From Candidatus Omnitrophota bacterium (GTDB lineage Bacteria; Omnitrophota; Gorgyraeia; JAFGHF01), in assembly GCA_042571705.1 (NCBI GenBank), contig JBHPFV010000003.1, positions 28,298 through 92,297 on the forward strand: a DNA stretch of 64,000 nucleotides. Direction: 5' to 3'. Numbering within the stretch: position 1 is the stretch's first letter; every line of letters begins with the position of its first letter. Positions 2,840 through 19,563 of the stretch are shown here, piece by piece. Under the pieces are notes generated by a model, which saw only the letters and a program-made list of their open reading frames with translations, had not been told where the DNA came from and made no database searches. Both the position numbers and the translations under genes were made by a program.

Positions 2840-3172
2840 ATGAGAAATTTAAAATATTTGTTACTGGCTGTTTTTTTAATAGGGTGTGCGGAGATTCAGC
2901 CTCCCGGCCCCAAAGAGATTATGCACCAGCCTTTAGGCGGCAGCGCCTTACGCATGGGAATGGCTAAGGAACAAGTCAAATCAATCTGGGGTGAGCCGGA
3001 CCTGGTCCGCGGGCTCGATTCAAACACCCCGGGCACAGTAAAGGAAGAGTGGGTTTACCGCGGTCGTTACCCCAATTTACCGATAAATGTGGATTATCTT
3101 GCGGAGAGTCAATACCTAGTATTTGATGGCAACAATCTTGTAGAGATGAATTTACGCAAACACAGTAAGTAA
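2840..3172 (+). CDS. BamE/SmpA-OmlA-like outer-membrane lipoprotein
   Basis: Lipobox LIGC after a signal peptide. GMAKEQVKSIWGEPD resembles the SmpA/OmlA core motif. 110 aa. Confidence 0.55.
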   Translation: MRNLKYLLLAVFLIGCAEIQPPGPKEIMHQPLGGSALRMGMAKEQVKSIWGEPDLVRGLDSNTPGTVKEEWVYRGRYPNLPINVDYLAESQYLVFDGNNLVEMNLRKHSK

Positions 3173-3185
3173 AAAGGAAACAGCA

Positions 3186-3551
3186 ATGGCTGATAACAAA
3201 AGAATTTTTGACCGGCTCGAAGGCGTGGTTAATGTGCGTTACGGGGTCAAGGGTCGGGATAAAGAAAAGATCGAAAGTCTACCCCGAAACATTGGGGGCG
3301 GGGGACTGGGGGTCTATTTAACAGAGAAGTTAGAGCCAGGTACAGTCATCGAGCTGGAAATTACCGTTCCCGACAATCCACAGAAGGCTATCCGCGGCGT
3401 TGGGGAAGTGCTTTGGACTAAACATTACGGTACTATCAGCCCCGAACAGGGTGTAAATTTGCACGAGACCGGGATCAGGTTTGTCGATATTAACCCGCTG
3501 GCAGTTGGTAGAGTCTATACCTACCATAGCCGGCAAGCTGACCTTTCCTAG
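3186..3551 (+). CDS. PilZ domain protein (variant binding motif)
   Basis: KRIFDR supplies RxxxR. The second motif is NIGGGG (Ser replaced by Gly). Confidence 0.7.
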   Translation: MADNKRIFDRLEGVVNVRYGVKGRDKEKIESLPRNIGGGGLGVYLTEKLEPGTVIELEITVPDNPQKAIRGVGEVLWTKHYGTISPEQGVNLHETGIRFVDINPLAVGRVYTYHSRQADLS

Positions 3552-3594
3552 AAGCCCAGCCTTCATAAATCTTACCTTTTTTATGCCAGTCGTC

Positions 3595-3623
3595 TTGACA
3601 AAGCCATTTTTTTGGTATATACT
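3595..3623 (+). promoter_or_regulatory. sigma70-type promoter upstream of the HD-GYP gene
   Basis: TTGACA (3595-3600), 17-nt spacer, TATACT (3618-3623), about 75 nt before the ATG at 3702. Confidence 0.5.
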
Positions 3624-3701
3624 TTTTATAGTATAGCCTAATTTGTAAGACTTTACCAGACTTTTCAAGATACGAGCCACGGGCGTTGCGAAGGAAAATT
3701 A

Positions 3702-5213
3702 ATGCCTGTCGCTCATTTTTTTTCTCAAGAGCCTAAATTTCTCTCCTTAGTCAGCTGTCTAAACAATCTTGGTGTCGGCTTAAGCGTAATCAATAAAGAA
3801 ATGCGGATTGTTTGGACCAATCAGGTCTTAAGCAATACTTTCGGCCCTCCCGAGAGCATTTGCCAGCGGCCATGCTACCAAGTGTTCTTTCGCAGAAAGG
3901 ACATCTGTTTAGATTGTCCGGTGGTTGAGACTTTTCGTACCGGTGAGCCCAGCCAAAAAAACAGCCAACTGCATTTTGGCCAAAATGGCCAAAAACGGTA
4001 TTACCACCTCAGCACCACACCGATAAGCTATAATGGTAAGGTAGCGGAAGTGCTGGAATTGAGTTATGACGTTACCAAAGATAAGGCCCTGGAAGAGAGG
4101 ATCCGCCATAAAAGCTCCGAATTGAATACCGCCCTCAGGGAATTATTTACAGTTTATTCGCTCAGCCGTGAGATTATTTCCACTTTGGACTTACAAAAAG
4201 TACTGACCTCAGTAGCCCAGACTGTCTGTTCAATCATTCATACTAAGGCCTGTGTCTTAAGGTTGGTTGATGAAGACAGTAAGCAGCTAAACGTTGCTTC
4301 CAGTTCCGGGATTAGCGCAGCCTATCTACAGAATACACCGTTAAAAGTAGGGCAGGGCCTTTCCGGGCTGATGGCCAACAGCGCCCGGCCGGTCATTTGT
4401 CCTGACCTGAGTAAAGAAAAAAACGCTAAATACTGCAATTACATCAATCAGGAGGGGTTTCAATCAGCCTTAGGCGTGCCGATTATCTTTAAGGATCAGG
4501 TCCTAGGGACCATTTTGACTTACGACAAATTAGTCAGAAATTACAGCAGGGTAGAAGTAATGCTTTTGTCTACTTTTGCCTCGCAGGTGGCGATTGCCAT
4601 TAAAAACGCCAAACTATATGAAAAGGTACATTTAAATTATTTCAATACCTTAAGTACCCTGGCCCTGGCCATGGAGGCCCGCGATCCTTATACTCACGGC
4701 CATTCTTTAAGGGTCACGGCCTACGCCACAGAGATCGCCCGGGCCTTAGGGTTGGCCCCACGTGAAATCAAGATTATTCTGCGGGCTGGCAAGTTACACG
4801 ATGTAGGTAAAATCGCGGTGCCCGATGCCATTTTAATGAAACCCGGGCCGTTAACCCGGAAAGAGAAAGAGGTAATTCAGCTCCATCCGCTTAAGGGGGT
4901 GGAGATGCTGGCGCCGCTTAAGTTCCTTGAGTCAGGTTTTCCTCTAATAAAACATCATCATGAAAGGTTTGATGGCAAAGGTTACCCCGCTGGACTAAAA
5001 AAGGGCAGGATCCCCGTTATCGCCCGGTTGTTTTCCTGTGCCGATGCCTTTGATGCGATGACTTCCGACCGTCCTTACCGCTGCAAAATGACCTACCAGA
5101 CCGCGATAGGGGAGCTGAAAAAAAATGCCGGCAGCCAATTCGACCCCGATATTGTCAAGAAATTCGTTTCCGTGCTCAAGCGTAAACCAGCATTCTTTTC
5201 TACCCTGGCCTAA
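3702..5213 (+). CDS. PAS-like/GAF/HD-GYP c-di-GMP phosphodiesterase
   Basis: The C-terminal domain has the intact HD-GYP set: HGHSLRV, LHDVGK, LHPLKG, HHHERFDGKGYP, DAFDAMTSDRPY. A central GAF-like region follows a coiled coil. The N-terminal sensor region carries C-x3-C-x10-C-x2-C. Confidence 0.9.
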   Translation: MPVAHFFSQEPKFLSLVSCLNNLGVGLSVINKEMRIVWTNQVLSNTFGPPESICQRPCYQVFFRRKDICLDCPVVETFRTGEPSQKNSQLHFGQNGQKRYYHLSTTPISYNGKVAEVLELSYDVTKDKALEERIRHKSSELNTALRELFTVYSLSREIISTLDLQKVLTSVAQTVCSIIHTKACVLRLVDEDSKQLNVASSSGISAAYLQNTPLKVGQGLSGLMANSARPVICPDLSKEKNAKYCNYINQEGFQSALGVPIIFKDQVLGTILTYDKLVRNYSRVEVMLLSTFASQVAIAIKNAKLYEKVHLNYFNTLSTLALAMEARDPYTHGHSLRVTAYATEIARALGLAPREIKIILRAGKLHDVGKIAVPDAILMKPGPLTRKEKEVIQLHPLKGVEMLAPLKFLESGFPLIKHHHERFDGKGYPAGLKKGRIPVIARLFSCADAFDAMTSDRPYRCKMTYQTAIGELKKNAGSQFDPDIVKKFVSVLKRKPAFFSTLA

Positions 5214-5278
5214 AGTTCCCAAATAGGGCAGAGGCTTAAAGGCGTTTAGCTTTCCCCTATTTTCTGTTAACAGGGGAG

Positions 5279-6057
5279 AGGTAAGTCCGAGTAACTCAAG
5301 GGGCATCGAGTAAGTTCTAGTAAAATTGAGGGCCTCGAGTAAGAAGTGGTAAAATTGGACCATGCGAGTAAGTTGAGGTAAAATAAAGCCTATCGAGTAA
5401 GTTCTAGTAAAATCAAACCCAACGAGTAACTTCCAGTAAAACCGAACCACACGATTAACTCTAAGTAAAATCAAGGCCATTGAGTAAGAACCGGTAAGCT
5501 CAAGACATCGAGTAACTATGAGTAAAATTGGACCCAATGATTAACTGTAAGTAAGTTCGGGACCCTTGAGTAATTCCCGGTAAAATCGAAGGGTACGGTT
5601 AACTGTAAGTAAGTTGGCCCGAAAAAGTAAGACCGGGTAAATTAGCCAGTGGCGAGTAATAGTAAGTAACTTGGGCCCAAAAAGTAAGCGCAGGTAAGGG
5701 CTCAGAATTTGGTAAATCTAAGTAAGTTGGCGCAAAAAAGTAAACCCAGGTAACTTCTCTTCAAAAAGTAAGCCCAAGTAAATGCGCCCGATTTAGTAAA
5801 TCTGAGTAAGTTAGTTCAAAAAAGTAAGCGCAGGTAAGAGCCCCGAATTTAGTAAATCTGAGTAAGTTGGCCCGAAAAAGTAACTCCAAGTAACAGCCAT
5901 GAAAAAAGTAATTCTGAGTAACTTCTCCCAAAAAAGTAAACCTAAGTAAGAGCTCTGAAAACGGTAAGACTGAGTAAGAGGTCTGAAAAAAGTAAGACCA
6001 GGTAAGAGGCTTTAAAAAAGTAAACCCCGGTAAATTGGCCCCAAAAAGTAAGCGCAT
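5279..6057 (+). repeat. phased GTAA tandem array, about 27 units of 29 bp then 28 bp, non-coding
   Basis: GTAA begins at 5281, 5291, 5310, 5320, 5339, 5349 ... (alternating +10/+19), switching near 5600 to +10/+18 through 6048. About 55 in-phase GTAA plus 3 TTAA variants by hand count. TAA therefore closes all three + frames. Confidence 0.95.
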
Positions 6058-6295
6058 AAAAGGCCAGTTAAATGGGCTTTTTTTAGTAAATAAAATTAAC
6101 TACATCAAAGTCAGGTTTTTAAAGTAATCAGAGTTAATTTGGATTAAGTGGCGGTTGCGGAGTAAGCAAAAATGAACAAAAGTAAGTGACAATTTCCGAG
6201 TAAGTTTAGGTAAGTTCAAAGAAGTGAGAATTTCGCAGTAAGATGGAGTAATATCAGTTAAGCCTGAGCGCAGTAATAGTTGGGTTCAGGTAGAC
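6058..6295 (+). repeat. degenerate tail of the GTAA array
   Basis: Further aGTAAg/aGTAAt copies at irregular spacing (about 6086, 6123, 6161, 6181, 6200, 6210, 6238, 6248, 6272). A weak hairpin plus T7 at 6058-6084 separates this tail from the regular array. Confidence 0.7.
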
Positions 6296-6344
6296 ATTAG
6301 TTATGGCTCATCCGGTATTAACTCGATAATTTCAATGCGAAATT

Positions 6345-6368
6345 AGGCCTTTAGCGGGCCTTTTTTTT
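6345..6368 (+). terminator. putative intrinsic terminator closing the array region
   Basis: AGGCC (6345-6349), 7-nt loop, GGCCT (6457 is not meant: 6357-6361), followed by 7 further T. The stem is short (5 bp, 4 of them GC). Confidence 0.5.
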
Positions 6369-6636
6369 GAATGTTGCTAACTATGACTTTTATGCTTGAG
6401 TTAACCTTGATTATTAAACTTGGCCCCACTTCCTACTTTATCCACACCCTTTTCCACATTTGTTGTATCTTATTGACTTACAATATGTTATATTTATAAT
6501 CGCCAATTGATGTAGTTAACATAAGATATATTATGCCACCAAGTGTCCGATATGGGGAAAAGCGCACAAAACAGCCTTGTATTGCGATTTTTGGGGTTAT
6601 TAAGGGTTATGGTTGGGTTGAGTTGGCCAACAGTTT

Positions 6637-6849
6637 TTAGCTGCTTATTTGTTTTTGATTAAGCCACTCTTGGATTAGTTTTTGCTTTTGGGGCTGCGGA
6701 AGGCTTTTGCGATTTAGCCAGCGGTAAACCGTGTCTCTGGAGACCCGGACATATTTGGCTAAATCGGCTATATTGGCATCAAATTGGCGGTGGGTTTGCC
6801 AGTAAGCGATCAACTCGGAGATGGTTTGGTTCGTTTGAATTTTGGGCAT
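6637..6849 (-). CDS. small helix-turn-helix DNA-binding protein (AlpA/excisionase-like HTH)
   Basis: 70 aa. IADLAKYVRVSRDTVYRWLNRK is a typical HTH_17/MerR-like recognition segment. Confidence 0.55.
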   Translation of the reverse strand: MPKIQTNQTISELIAYWQTHRQFDANIADLAKYVRVSRDTVYRWLNRKSLPQPQKQKLIQEWLNQKQISS

Positions 6850-6899
6850 TTCTGGCTGAAATTCGGCCTATTTTTTGGGCTCGTTTAATGACATTCAGG

Positions 6900-7085
6900 C
6901 TAGTCGCGGTCTAAGTCTTTGATCACCATAGTATGCTCAGTAAGGTTCTGTAAAAAATGCCTGAAGTCATAATAAAGCTTGCCCATGTCCTCTTTGCTAT
7001 CCCCTTTTGATTCCTTGAGGGTGGCACAGCCCAGACAAAATAACGAAAAGTAAATCACGATTATTATTGGCAGCAAGCGCTTCAT
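6900..7085 (-). CDS. small secreted or lipoprotein, hypothetical
   Basis: 61 aa. Signal peptide MKRLLPIIIVIYFSLFCLGCATL with Cys residues at the likely cleavage site. Sits upstream of the HTH gene on the same strand. Confidence 0.45.
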   Translation of the reverse strand: MKRLLPIIIVIYFSLFCLGCATLKESKGDSKEDMGKLYYDFRHFLQNLTEHTMVIKDLDRD

Positions 7086-7145
7086 TTCGTACCCTCTATC
7101 TCATATTGAAAATTTTCGATATGTCAGCGTTATTCCACTGCACAT

Positions 7146-7174
7146 ATTATAACCGACAAATTGCTATATGCCAA
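7146..7174 (-). promoter_or_regulatory. sigma70-type promoter for the lipoprotein/HTH pair
   Basis: On the - strand: TTGGCA (7174-7169), 17-nt spacer, TATAAT (7151-7146), about 60 nt upstream of the ATG at 7085. Confidence 0.45.
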
Positions 7175-7240
7175 CTTTTTTTTGATCTAGAGCCAGCAGT
7201 AAAATATGCCTAAAATTATACTGATTAAAGGCTAGTAATC

Positions 7241-7249
7241 TGGTATAAT
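7241..7249 (+). promoter_or_regulatory. extended -10 promoter element for the alpha/beta hydrolase gene
   Basis: TGgTATAAT at 7241-7249. The downstream RBS is ctGGAGGtactagATG. Confidence 0.4.
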
Positions 7250-7300
7250 GAAAAGTACTATTGAAGGAGTTCTAAGATCTAACTAAACTGGAGGTACTAG

Positions 7301-8281
7301 ATGAAGTTCCCTTTCAGGTGCGTTTTTGTTCTTATTTGTGCATTAATTTTATTTGCGAGCCAGGGAAAGCTGCTGCTTGCTGATAATATTGGAGATTTGG
7401 AGTATACGATTGAGCTAGAAGGATCTGCAGGTAAAGAAACGATCGCTATTCTGCCCTGCAGCGAGGGTGAGCATACATTCATTGCAATACACGGAGCAAC
7501 CACTACTAATCATCTCATGAGATGGGAAAATTTATGGTCTAAAGGCGAGGTTATATTAGCCGGACTTCCAGGGCACGGAGAAGTTCCTCAGTATGGGCGT
7601 TCACACTATTTACAGTGGACTCCCCAACATTTCATTGATGTTGGCGTGGCAACGGTGAAAAAATATAGTCAGGGGCGAGCAGTCACGTTGATTGGCCATT
7701 CTTTTGGAGGTGGCGTAGCTTTGGGGGTTGCCCTTGAAGCCCCTGAGCTTGTTGAGAGATTGATTGTGGTTGATCCAGTTGTCTGGCCTAAGTTAGGCGG
7801 GCTGGATGCTGTAGTAATGTTTATGTGTTCAGCTCCACCGGTGGGTCGTCTTTTGATTAATTCTATTGTATGGTATACAAAAAGATCGTTATCTGAATAC
7901 AGCAAGGGATTTGAAGCTTTTGTTAGTAAAAGTAACGTAAAAACATTTTGCGCAAGCCCTAAAGTCAAGAAAGTCTTAGCACGAAGTTACACCCCTTATG
8001 TTAAGACTCCAGGGTATACATTTTCCGAAATTTATATGGTAATGAAGAAGTTTGATTTACGTTCTCAGCTTAAGGACAATCCTTTCCGGATCCCCACCTT
8101 GATTATACATGGAGATCAGGACCCGAGCGTACCGTTGATGCAAGCAGAGTGGCTAGCTAAGGCGCTTCCCGATGCAGATCTTGTCGTTCTTCCTGATACG
8201 GGGCATTTGGGTTTCCTGGAAAACGAAGAGTTTTTTAATGAACAGGTGGAAAATTGGCTTGATGCCCATCCGGTTAATTAG
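7301..8281 (+). CDS. alpha/beta-fold hydrolase with signal peptide
   Basis: Nucleophile elbow GHSFGG (GxSxG), late Asp (HGDQD) and His (DTGHLGF), and a hydrophobic N-terminal signal sequence. Confidence 0.8.
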   Translation: MKFPFRCVFVLICALILFASQGKLLLADNIGDLEYTIELEGSAGKETIAILPCSEGEHTFIAIHGATTTNHLMRWENLWSKGEVILAGLPGHGEVPQYGRSHYLQWTPQHFIDVGVATVKKYSQGRAVTLIGHSFGGGVALGVALEAPELVERLIVVDPVVWPKLGGLDAVVMFMCSAPPVGRLLINSIVWYTKRSLSEYSKGFEAFVSKSNVKTFCASPKVKKVLARSYTPYVKTPGYTFSEIYMVMKKFDLRSQLKDNPFRIPTLIIHGDQDPSVPLMQAEWLAKALPDADLVVLPDTGHLGFLENEEFFNEQVENWLDAHPVN

Positions 8282-18773: not shown

Positions 18774-19160
18774 CTATTTATATCCAGCCAGTAACTTTTG
18801 TAATAATCTTGCGTCTTTTTTGCGCAGGTCTATAAAGCAGGCTCCGGTACTAAGAATGTCTTGATGTCCTTTTGCAACCGGCCGGCTATAAACTATTTTT
18901 ACCTTGGCGTTAATAGTTTTAGGCTTAGTTGGTTTGCCGCGTTTACTTTTTCTGGGTAACTCAAGCTGAAGATCTATTACCAAGGGGTCCGGTTTATGGC
19001 TGCCGACAAATCCCAACCCTTCAGCGCTAATATCTTTAGTTTGGGCCCTGATCTTTAGCTGTTCTTTAACTGGAGGTATGGTAGTGTGATAAGTTACCGG
19101 GAGTGAAACAGCGAATCTGCGCGTACCCCTGTTTTCAGTATATTTTTTCTTCCTTTTCAT
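18774..19160 (-). CDS. PilZ domain protein
   Basis: RGTRR (RxxxR) and DISAEG (DxSxxG). Confidence 0.7.
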   Translation of the reverse strand: MKRKKKYTENRGTRRFAVSLPVTYHTTIPPVKEQLKIRAQTKDISAEGLGFVGSHKPDPLVIDLQLELPRKSKRGKPTKPKTINAKVKIVYSRPVAKGHQDILSTGACFIDLRKKDARLLQKLLAGYK

Positions 19161-19185: not shown

Positions 19186-19563
19186 TTACATCCAATGGTT
19201 CCAATCTAGCCTAGCAATACTTTCCTTCACGAATTTTCTGATCGTCAACCGATCTTTTTGCTTCAACTTGACAAAGGCCACGCCGCATCGATAAGTGGGA
19301 TATCCGCCCCAGTAATTATTCAGCACGAACGTGATCCGACCTTGAACATTAATGCTAACATAAGGAGAGGGCAATACTATTGTTAGCTGCAAAATACTTC
19401 CGGGAGGCAGTTTCTTTGAGGTCTTGAGCATTATTCCGCCTTCGCAGATATTTACGCTGACCGCTTTTGTTGGTGAAGAAGCAGAGCCTTTAACCCTATA
19501 TTTGACACCAAAATCCGTTCTGACTCTAGAGAATTTTCTCTGTTCTTGAGCCATTTGAACCAC
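19186..19563 (-). CDS. PilZ domain protein (Cys variant of the binding motif)
   Basis: RKFSR, and NICEGG (Ser replaced by Cys). Its 5' end overlaps the larC stop by 29-38 bp, depending on the start codon chosen. Confidence 0.75.
   Translation of the reverse strand: MVQMAQEQRKFSRVRTDFGVKYRVKGSASSPTKAVSVNICEGGIMLKTSKKLPPGSILQLTIVLPSPYVSINVQGRITFVLNNYWGGYPTYRCGVAFVKLKQKDRLTIRKFVKESIARLDWNHWM

Follow-up and report, generated by a model that had tools for sequence, protein, structure and literature searches.

A polar, helically phased repeat array beside the chromosomal dif site of Omnitrophota: a candidate protein-binding element of the replication terminus

Introduction

Chromosomal dif sites are thought to be bare 28-bp sites, the activity of which is controlled by FtsK arriving along FtsK-orienting polar sequences (KOPS), and elaborate accessory arms are, to our knowledge, known only for plasmid sites and phage att sites. 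In the plasmid sites cer and psi the accessory sequences abut the core on its XerC side, and ArcA recognises direct repeats. Iterated direct repeats are found in plasmid and phage centromeres: R1 parC, pBtoxis tubC and F sopC are series of about ten repeats or more, kept in phase, that seed the cooperative assembly of a nucleoprotein filament or wrap; each replicon has one copy. At cer and psi, accessory sequences of about 180 bp control Xer recombination together with accessory proteins, ArcA being a response regulator (PMC9113270), and activation by FtsK is influenced by the DNA that adjoins the XerD arm (PMC2673442). The operators of recombination directionality factors (RDFs) are direct repeats about one helical turn apart beside tyrosine-recombinase sites; they are bound cooperatively, one monomer per repeat, and the DNA is bent (PMC7498355). 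The CpxR box is GTAAA-N(4-8)-GTAAA (PMC5063474). The present work concerns an array of short direct repeats found near one end of a 64,000-nucleotide stretch from a Candidatus Omnitrophota bacterium (assembly GCA_042571705.1, contig JBHPFV010000003.1, positions 28,298 to 92,297), the whole of which is called the window below. An earlier note on this DNA had linked the array to the transcript of an adjacent gene for an HD-GYP phosphodiesterase; it missed the invariant neighbour, which is a dif site at the replication terminus (18 of 18 array loci).

Anatomy of the array

The array and its tail are made up of the following parts.

5281 to 5655, + strand: 5' portion of the array with 13 units, most of them type A (29 bp), in the order AAAAAAABAAABA
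5656 to 6047, + strand: 3' part of the array, 14 type B units in succession, 28 bp each
6048 to 6262, + strand: tail of fixed architecture, 215 bp, as seen in the alignment of 16 loci

Each unit consists of two direct half-sites, (G/T)TAA-N6-(G/T)TAA, and 27 such units are found at 5281-6047 when TTAA is accepted as a variant half-site. Between 5200 and 6400 GTAA occurs 64 times and TTAC not once, so that every motif lies on the + strand. The three-pair pattern was matched 17 times against 0.00 expected in shuffled sequences, which places the array far above chance. Distances from one GTAA to the next alternate between exactly 10 bp and 18 or 19 bp, and successive units start 28 or 29 bp apart, the chain running from 5281 to 6048 without any phase break. 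The rigid 28/29/38-bp phasing spans up to 1 kb, and about 980 bp in the window. Logos drawn from 75 type A units and 82 type B units, each set originating from 16 loci, give the consensus GAGTAA-cTTCCr-GTAAAAT-yrrrCCC for type A and AAAAAGTAA-nnyCAr-GTAAGTT-nnCCC for type B, with informative positions over about 24 bp per unit.

The tail, described as degenerate in the earlier note, is instead a conserved domain with fixed GTAA offsets: the 16 tails align almost gap-free and their GTAA columns are invariant. In the window GTAA starts at 6048, 6086, 6124, 6162, 6182, 6200, 6210, 6238 and 6248, corresponding to offsets of 0, 38, 76, 114, 134, 152, 162, 190 and 200, and the TTAA half-sites at 6068, 6096, 6134, 6144 and 6258 fall on the same 10-bp lattice. 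The half-sites of the tail are grouped by three, with groups recurring every 38 bp.

Several features overlapping the array were examined and set aside. Two promoter-like matches within it (5326-5355 and 5356-5384, 9/12 each) arise from the resemblance of GTAAAAT to a -10 element. The - strand open reading frames at 4995-5537 and 5761-6057 were rejected as genes, the 28/29-bp period not being a multiple of 3; they exist only because TTAC holds no stop codon. A KOPS-type skew of GTAA was not seen outside the array (293 copies on the + strand vs 250 on the - strand). The leader sequence GGGGAGAGG that precedes the array was likewise discarded as a KOPS candidate, its copies being too few and purine bias confounding the count; the leader-like GGGGAG is biased 18:7 toward the leading strand, a figure confounded by purine and codon bias.

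Related loci

Eighteen distinct array loci were gathered from a pattern scan of species-representative genomes, from metagenomes and from contigs encoding homologues of the small helix-turn-helix (HTH) protein described below. In the scan of one genome per species, long arrays of this kind were found only in metagenome-assembled genomes of Omnitrophota and in three labelled Planctomycetia. The metagenome scan added at least three further array loci, the remainder of the matches listed being mostly simple satellites, and viral contigs displayed simple tandem repeats only, with neither array nor dif. The order of the parts (type A, type B, tail) is the same in every complete locus. The half-site spacing is always 10 bp and the number of units ranges from 3 to 27. 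Most loci, including the window and L074, are free of phase breaks, and occasional 27-bp or skipped steps are seen elsewhere. In most related loci the first GTAA is preceded by the leader (A)TAGGGGAGAGG, which is often paired with a nearby C/U run, the pairing partner changing from locus to locus.

About 60 gut-bacterial loci with three 29-bp units were considered as relatives and rejected, the shared geometry being imposed by the search pattern; moreover, neither the window nor the array loci encode a homologue of the ATPase found there. In these loci (L003, L007, L012, L016, L041 and about 55 more; for example L007 3238-3308, - strand) TTGACA is followed by three 29-bp units ACAGTAAAGAACAGTAAAAT-N9. 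The repeats, found in Lachnospiraceae, Clostridia and others, are located directly upstream of a gene for a P-loop ATPase of about 343 aa (MQNPFTLTFGK...GVRGSGKT). The first unit forms TTGACA-N17-TAAAAT, and the arrangement looks like a promoter with a triple tandem operator.

The dif site and the replication terminus

The region downstream of the tail contains the following elements.

6438 to 6446 and 6450 to 6458, no strand assigned: DnaA-box-like motifs TTATCCACA and TTTTCCACA, named for motif resemblance
6514 to 6541, no strand assigned: XerCD dif site, reading on the + strand AGTTAACATAA (XerD arm)-GATATA-TTATGCCACCA (XerC arm)
6637 to 6849, - strand: gene for a 70-aa helix-turn-helix protein, converging on dif, a conserved partner of dif in this phylum

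Reference dif sequences follow an 11-6-11 layout in which the XerD arm (TTATGTTAA-like) is conserved and the XerC arm is more variable (PMC3025954). The 28-bp site at 6514-6541, whose reverse complement reads TGGTGGCATAA-TATATC-TTATGTTAACT, displays this layout together with the conserved XerD arm and the variable XerC arm. It is identical to the E. coli dif at 21 of 28 positions (10 of 11 in the XerD arm); over the array loci the identity is 20-22/28, the XerC arm varying among them. The dif 20-mer GTTAACATAAGATATATTAT is present in all 11 array loci first scanned, nine times exactly and twice with one mismatch, and the loci added later carry it with 0-1 mismatch. In every one of the 18 array loci dif is located 96-269 bp downstream of the array and tail, on the same strand and in the same orientation. 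The array is always on the XerD-arm side of dif and always points toward it.

The site is single-copy in the window, and the GC skew turns from + to - at 6-8 kb, where dif sits. Genes are carried by the + strand up to 5213 and by the - strand from 6637 to at least 20.7 kb. This switch of skew and gene strand marks the replication terminus; the array therefore lies at the terminus, on the XerD side, pointing at dif. In L101 the locus is found at 0.89 Mb (57%) of a complete 1.55-Mb chromosome. A literature search linking Omnitrophota and dif returned nothing.

Between tail and dif, 14 of the 18 array loci carry the motif TTWTCCACA at a distance of exactly 77 nt upstream of the dif 20-mer. The first DnaA-box-like motif of the window thus opens an arm of about 77 bp adjoining dif, the length of which is conserved. 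DnaA-box-like boxes are also present 86-99 nt before the diverged dif of the array-less loci L239 and L241. On the other side, the stretch AGTGTCCGATAT (window 6542-6553; AGTGTCAGATAT in most loci) just past the XerC arm is conserved, array-less loci included, and GCGATTTTTGGGGTT (window 6600-6625) is conserved among array loci; both fall in the interval from dif to the HTH stop codon. A strong promoter-like match, TTGACT-16-TATAAT (11/12, window 6473-6500), points across dif, antisense into the HTH gene. It is followed by no + strand gene for about 0.8 kb, the next long + strand open reading frame being at 7301.

Terminus regions of chromosomes are known to be plastic, and the variation in unit number could be that of a neutral or selfish minisatellite, devoid of function and placed by chance in a recombination-prone terminus. 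Such an origin is considered very improbable. The units are not homogenised: their spacers differ, and the half-sites, their spacing, the unit order and the 215-bp tail are kept in genomes in which the identity of the flanking HTH proteins is only 49-79%. Such a pattern indicates that selection has acted on the motif and its phase and speaks against recent slippage.

A polar replication-fork barrier or trap was also considered, in which bound proteins would stop forks coming from one direction so that termination occurs at dif, as an analogue of Tus-Ter or RTP-Ter made of many weak sites. The terminus location beside dif, the strict single orientation on one side only, the many tandem sites and the adjacent gene for a small DNA-binding protein all suit such a device, and in Bacillus subtilis rtp adjoins Ter. 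The explanation is nevertheless judged improbable, as the HTH protein occurs without the array as well, a unit number ranging from 3 to 27 would be odd for an essential trap and no mirror-image array is present across dif. No homology to Tus or RTP turned up, no direct test for it having been made.

Upstream genes and the HD-GYP question

The region upstream of the array and the terminator-like site beyond the tail are annotated as follows.

3595 to 3623, + strand: sigma-70-like promoter match TTGACA-N17-TATACT, 11/12 consensus positions, a sequence match alone
3702 to 5213, + strand: PAS-GAF-HD-GYP gene of the cyclic di-GMP (c-di-GMP) phosphodiesterase type (Pfam HD_5 E = 8e-38, plus GAF and PAS)
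5214 to 5280, + strand: gap after the HD-GYP stop codon, with a degenerate leader copy, a pyrimidine run and the conserved leader
6345 to 6368, + strand: intrinsic-terminator-like hairpin AGGCC...GGCCT followed by T8, from a terminator scan

The earlier note proposed that the array is a 3' extension of the HD-GYP transcript, released or carried as a motif-dense RNA. Part of its description was confirmed. The promoter match in front of the HD-GYP gene is present, the motif HHERFDGKGYP is visible in the translation of 3702-5213 and the promoter-pattern scan gave no promoter-like site in 5213-5281. The gap contains the degenerate leader copy AAATAGGGCAGAGGC at 5221-5235, the conserved leader AACAGGGGAGAGG at 5268-5280 and the pyrimidine run CUUUCCCCU (5250-5258), which pairs with the leader. 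Both of the mutually exclusive hairpins described there can be formed, AAATAGGG (5221-5228) with CCCTATTT (5255-5262) and CCCCT (5254-5258) with AGGGG (5272-5276), and the segment CCCCTATTT is common to the two. The alternative arises from the duplication of the leader motif (AAATAGGGCAGAGGC, AACAGGGGAGAGG). The fold of the gap is not significant (z = -1.5), and its minimum free energy and centroid structures show the second hairpin only (5250-5258 / 5272-5280). Similarly, the bulged hairpin with T7 said to end the regular array exists at 6058-6084 and is weak (-9.9 kcal/mol, z = -1.1), its T-run (6078-6084) not being conserved in the 16 aligned tails. The AGGCC...GGCCT hairpin with T8 is also as described, and of 16 loci only 2, the window and one relative, have a terminator-like hairpin between tail and dif. 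In total, 6 terminator-like sites were counted in 3000-7500 vs 5.0 expected from shuffles. Among the features first pointed out, the array alone exceeds chance; the hairpins and T-runs do not, nor are they conserved.

The comparison of the 18 loci indicates that the HD-GYP gene is a local neighbour. It adjoins the array in two loci only, the window and L028. In L059, L074, L243 and L248 it is located 1-3 genes further upstream, behind a membrane protein with PilZ, coiled-coil and glycosidase-like parts, and within the available locus DNA it was not seen upstream in L010, L018, L086/L168, L101, L238, L244, L246 and L262. The gene order of L244 is that of the window minus HD-GYP. The gene adjoining the array encodes a small PilZ protein in L010, L018, L086/L168, L244, L246 and L262, and a 152-aa protein with an N-terminal signal-like segment in L101 and L238. 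PilZ genes are found upstream in nearly all loci, and a yqeY-PilZ-BamE-like-PilZ cluster is syntenic in most array-bearing genomes. The genes near the array encode PilZ, HD-GYP, BamE-like, HTH, DinB, PEGA and EamA proteins. Small single-domain PilZ or PilZ-like genes are unusually dense near this terminus, at 1461-1826, 2319-2828, 3186-3551, 18774-19160 and 19186-19563; PilZ was confirmed by Pfam for 2319-2828 and 3186-3551, the other three being judged PilZ-like from their translation only.

In 17 of the 18 loci the array and the upstream gene run in the same direction. Among the first 15 related loci, 11 have the stop codon of the upstream gene inside the leader or first GTAA, or at most 10 nt from either. 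Any transcript of that gene must hence continue into the array, for which a separate promoter of its own is unlikely. The exception to the common direction is L236, in which a divergent rpoN beside an IS200-type transposase occupies the upstream position; the array, the tail, dif and the HTH gene are still together. The transposase gene, of the insertion sequence IS200/IS605 type (Y1), is located at 6439-7128 in locus coordinates, next to where the divergent rpoN replaced the usual cluster. This suggests a transposon-associated rearrangement that left the array, dif and the HTH gene intact.

The proposal of a 3' extension thus stands as to co-orientation and to the lack of a terminator-like or promoter-like site between gene and array, and fails as to the specific link with HD-GYP. 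Synteny in relatives had been suggested as a check, and arrays without linkage to HD-GYP genes were found, which refutes that link. A looser neighbourhood of the array with c-di-GMP genes remains.

Search for an RNA function

The array element is not in Rfam: cmscan of 3000-8000 on both strands against Rfam 15 returned no match at E <= 1. The folding of the array is indistinguishable from that of shuffled sequences (z = -0.04), and the mean z of the 16 tails (-0.23 on the + strand, -0.72 on the - strand) does not differ from shuffles either. RNAalifold on the aligned tails gave an empty consensus without any conserved pair. Tail hairpins seen by eye, with apparently covarying stems and GUUAA loops, were accordingly dropped. 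No conserved promoter or terminator for the array was found across the loci, a terminator-like site following the tail in 2 of 16. No positive evidence was thus obtained for the functional, motif-dense RNA linked to c-di-GMP turnover that the earlier note envisaged.

Two classes of known RNA elements were compared with the array. CsrB and RsmZ resemble it in that a short motif recurs many times within a single non-coding stretch; they differ in possessing their own promoter and terminator, a variable motif spacing and motifs placed in hairpin loops, conserved loops of this kind and a dedicated promoter and terminator not being seen in the array. ToxI-like RNAs of type III toxin-antitoxin systems are not matched either, the units sharing half-sites only and the downstream region consisting of dif and convergent genes.

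An RNA role of a different kind would be that of an unstructured 3' untranslated region, or a processed product of it, of any upstream gene, in which some 55-70 single-stranded GUAA/UUAA motifs titrate or scaffold an RNA-binding protein, with a possible tie to c-di-GMP through the PilZ and HD-GYP neighbours. This alternative is rather unlikely in our view, and a number of observations do fit it. All motifs are on the + strand, TTAC being absent, and the array is co-oriented with the upstream gene (17/18), whose stop codon is within the leader or first GTAA or close beside it, without an intervening terminator. Pairing of the leader GGGGAGAGG with a C/U run in its vicinity is frequent (window 5250-5280). 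PilZ is upstream in nearly all loci and HD-GYP adjacent or within 1-3 genes in 6/18, and an RNA displaying its motifs would need the lack of secondary structure computed here. It is opposed by the absence of an Rfam family and of a conserved promoter or terminator, by L236, which has no co-directional upstream gene, and by the functionally mixed upstream genes, among them the membrane PilZ-glycosidase-like protein and the putatively secreted 152-aa protein. Furthermore, exact 10-bp spacing with rigid 28/29/38-bp phasing is typical of duplex-DNA arrays and not of known sponge RNAs, and the constant orientation toward dif and nearness to it would be left unexplained.

Candidate binding proteins

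The HTH gene converges on dif in every locus examined. The family comprises 39 sequence clusters only, and every source that names an organism gives Omnitrophota or Omnitrophica. The protein is very conserved, and its helix VSRDTVYRWL is invariant. The protein matches HTH_17 (E = 1.3e-7), with a TIGR01764 match below cutoff, and its AlphaFold model (pLDDT 85.7) predicts a four-helix XRE/Cro-like domain, XRE-like Foldseek matches being obtained at E > 0.1. Three more distant loci contain the HTH gene and a diverged dif without array, and two of the three keep a TTATCCACA-like box. The idea that the protein is an Xis-like factor of the array was weakened by the predicted fold, which is not that of a winged-helix excisionase, and by its occurrence without arrays. 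For the same two reasons it more likely serves dif or the proximal arm rather than the array, and is possibly a dif-associated factor.

The large PilZ protein encoded upstream in some loci was rejected as a binder: its parts are a transmembrane segment, a coiled coil and a C-terminal domain resembling glycosidases, and the window does not encode it. Neither an OmpR-type regulator gene nor a partition gene is adjacent to the array.

Comparison with known systems

Like the array, the accessory DNA of cer and psi is non-coding DNA flanking a 28-bp XerCD core; the plasmid DNA binds accessory proteins (PepA with ArgR or ArcA) that control recombination. The differences are substantial. The plasmid sequences measure about 180 bp and abut the core, whereas the array is built of tens of phased half-sites over 0.3-1 kb, on the XerD side of a chromosomal dif and 96-269 bp away from it. 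Accessory DNA abutting the core on the XerC side was not found, and only the 77-bp TTWTCCACA arm is kept at a fixed distance.

The geometry of RDF and excisionase operators is encountered here, with a 10-bp half-site spacing throughout and a position beside dif. Lambda Xis X1-X1.5-X2 and phage 186 Apl operators are also direct repeats 10-11 bp apart beside a tyrosine-recombinase site, and the triplets of the tail, at 10-bp spacing, resemble X1-X1.5-X2 in particular. However, known operators contain 3-7 sites compared to about 55-70 in the array, and are bound by winged-helix excisionases, unlike the XRE/Cro-like four-helix domain modelled for the present HTH protein. The CpxR box of the OmpR/PhoB family shares the GTAA core and the 10-bp head-to-tail arrangement, a resemblance in motif geometry only; boxes of this family occur singly in promoters, and none of the genes near the array was recognised as a regulator of that kind. 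The centromeres parC, tubC and sopC are also arrays of iterated phased direct repeats. In contrast, the array has no adjacent partition operon (adaptor and NTPase), that is, no partition ATPase, actin-like or tubulin-like gene, and sits at the terminus by dif and not in a par operon.

Proposed role of the array

With moderate confidence, we favour the explanation that the array acts in cis as a polar, helically phased DNA platform for protein binding, belonging to the dif/terminus region of one Omnitrophota clade and transcribed only incidentally. This is more likely than a device of the HD-GYP mRNA. A role in duplex DNA is preferred because of the exact 10-bp spacing, the rigid phasing, the constant orientation to dif and the joint survival of array and dif in L236. 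The array would act as a one-directional lattice of half-sites about one helical turn apart, arranged by twos in the array and by threes in the tail. A protein recognising direct repeats would bind it cooperatively, head-to-tail, and build a long nucleoprotein filament or wrap beside dif. The filament might organise or mark the terminus, control access to XerCD-dif, or modulate Xer recombination or fork fusion; in a sub-variant, it would block replication forks in a polar manner. Passive transcription of the array, as the 3' end of the gene that happens to precede it, is also probable.

A number of points weigh against this explanation. The upstream synteny (yqeY-PilZ cluster, 17/18) is nearly as conserved as the linkage to dif, the array being separated from its upstream genes in L236 only. 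Strict co-orientation and an array start at upstream stop codons fit an RNA role equally well, and an unstructured RNA displaying single-stranded motifs would also give no folding signal. The distance between tail and dif varies, so that the array itself is unlikely to belong to a rigid recombination-accessory arm. Sites number 3-7 in known accessory arms, vs 50-70 here, and we know of no dif with such an array. The HTH protein is predicted to be all-helical and XRE/Cro-like instead of a winged-helix excisionase, and it persists in lineages with dif but no array and is therefore not array-specific. The sequences establish the anatomy, phasing and conservation of the array, its linkage and orientation to dif and the lack of RNA-structure signals; the binding of a protein, the identity of that protein and the action of the complex are inferred, and none of the proteins considered was assigned as the binder.

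A further proposal is put forward tentatively. The clade may have added a long polar nucleoprotein arm to its chromosomal dif, comprising up to about 70 (G/T)TAA half-sites, the 215-bp tail and the 77-bp proximal arm, as a new means of terminus marking or of controlling dimer resolution or fork fusion. Such an arm could replace or supplement control of the FtsK/KOPS type, with a possible c-di-GMP input through the PilZ and HD-GYP neighbours.

Conclusions

The annotation of this locus is corrected in that the HD-GYP link is local and the dif link is present in 18/18 array loci examined. A conserved, phased array of 0.3-1 kb that is invariably found beside the XerD arm of a chromosomal dif would add a new architectural element to those of bacterial termini. 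Its bearers belong to a phylum of very small cells that is poorly known and largely uncultured. The array provides a concrete DNA or RNA bait for finding its binding protein, as well as a testable handle on how these organisms finish the replication and segregation of their chromosome.

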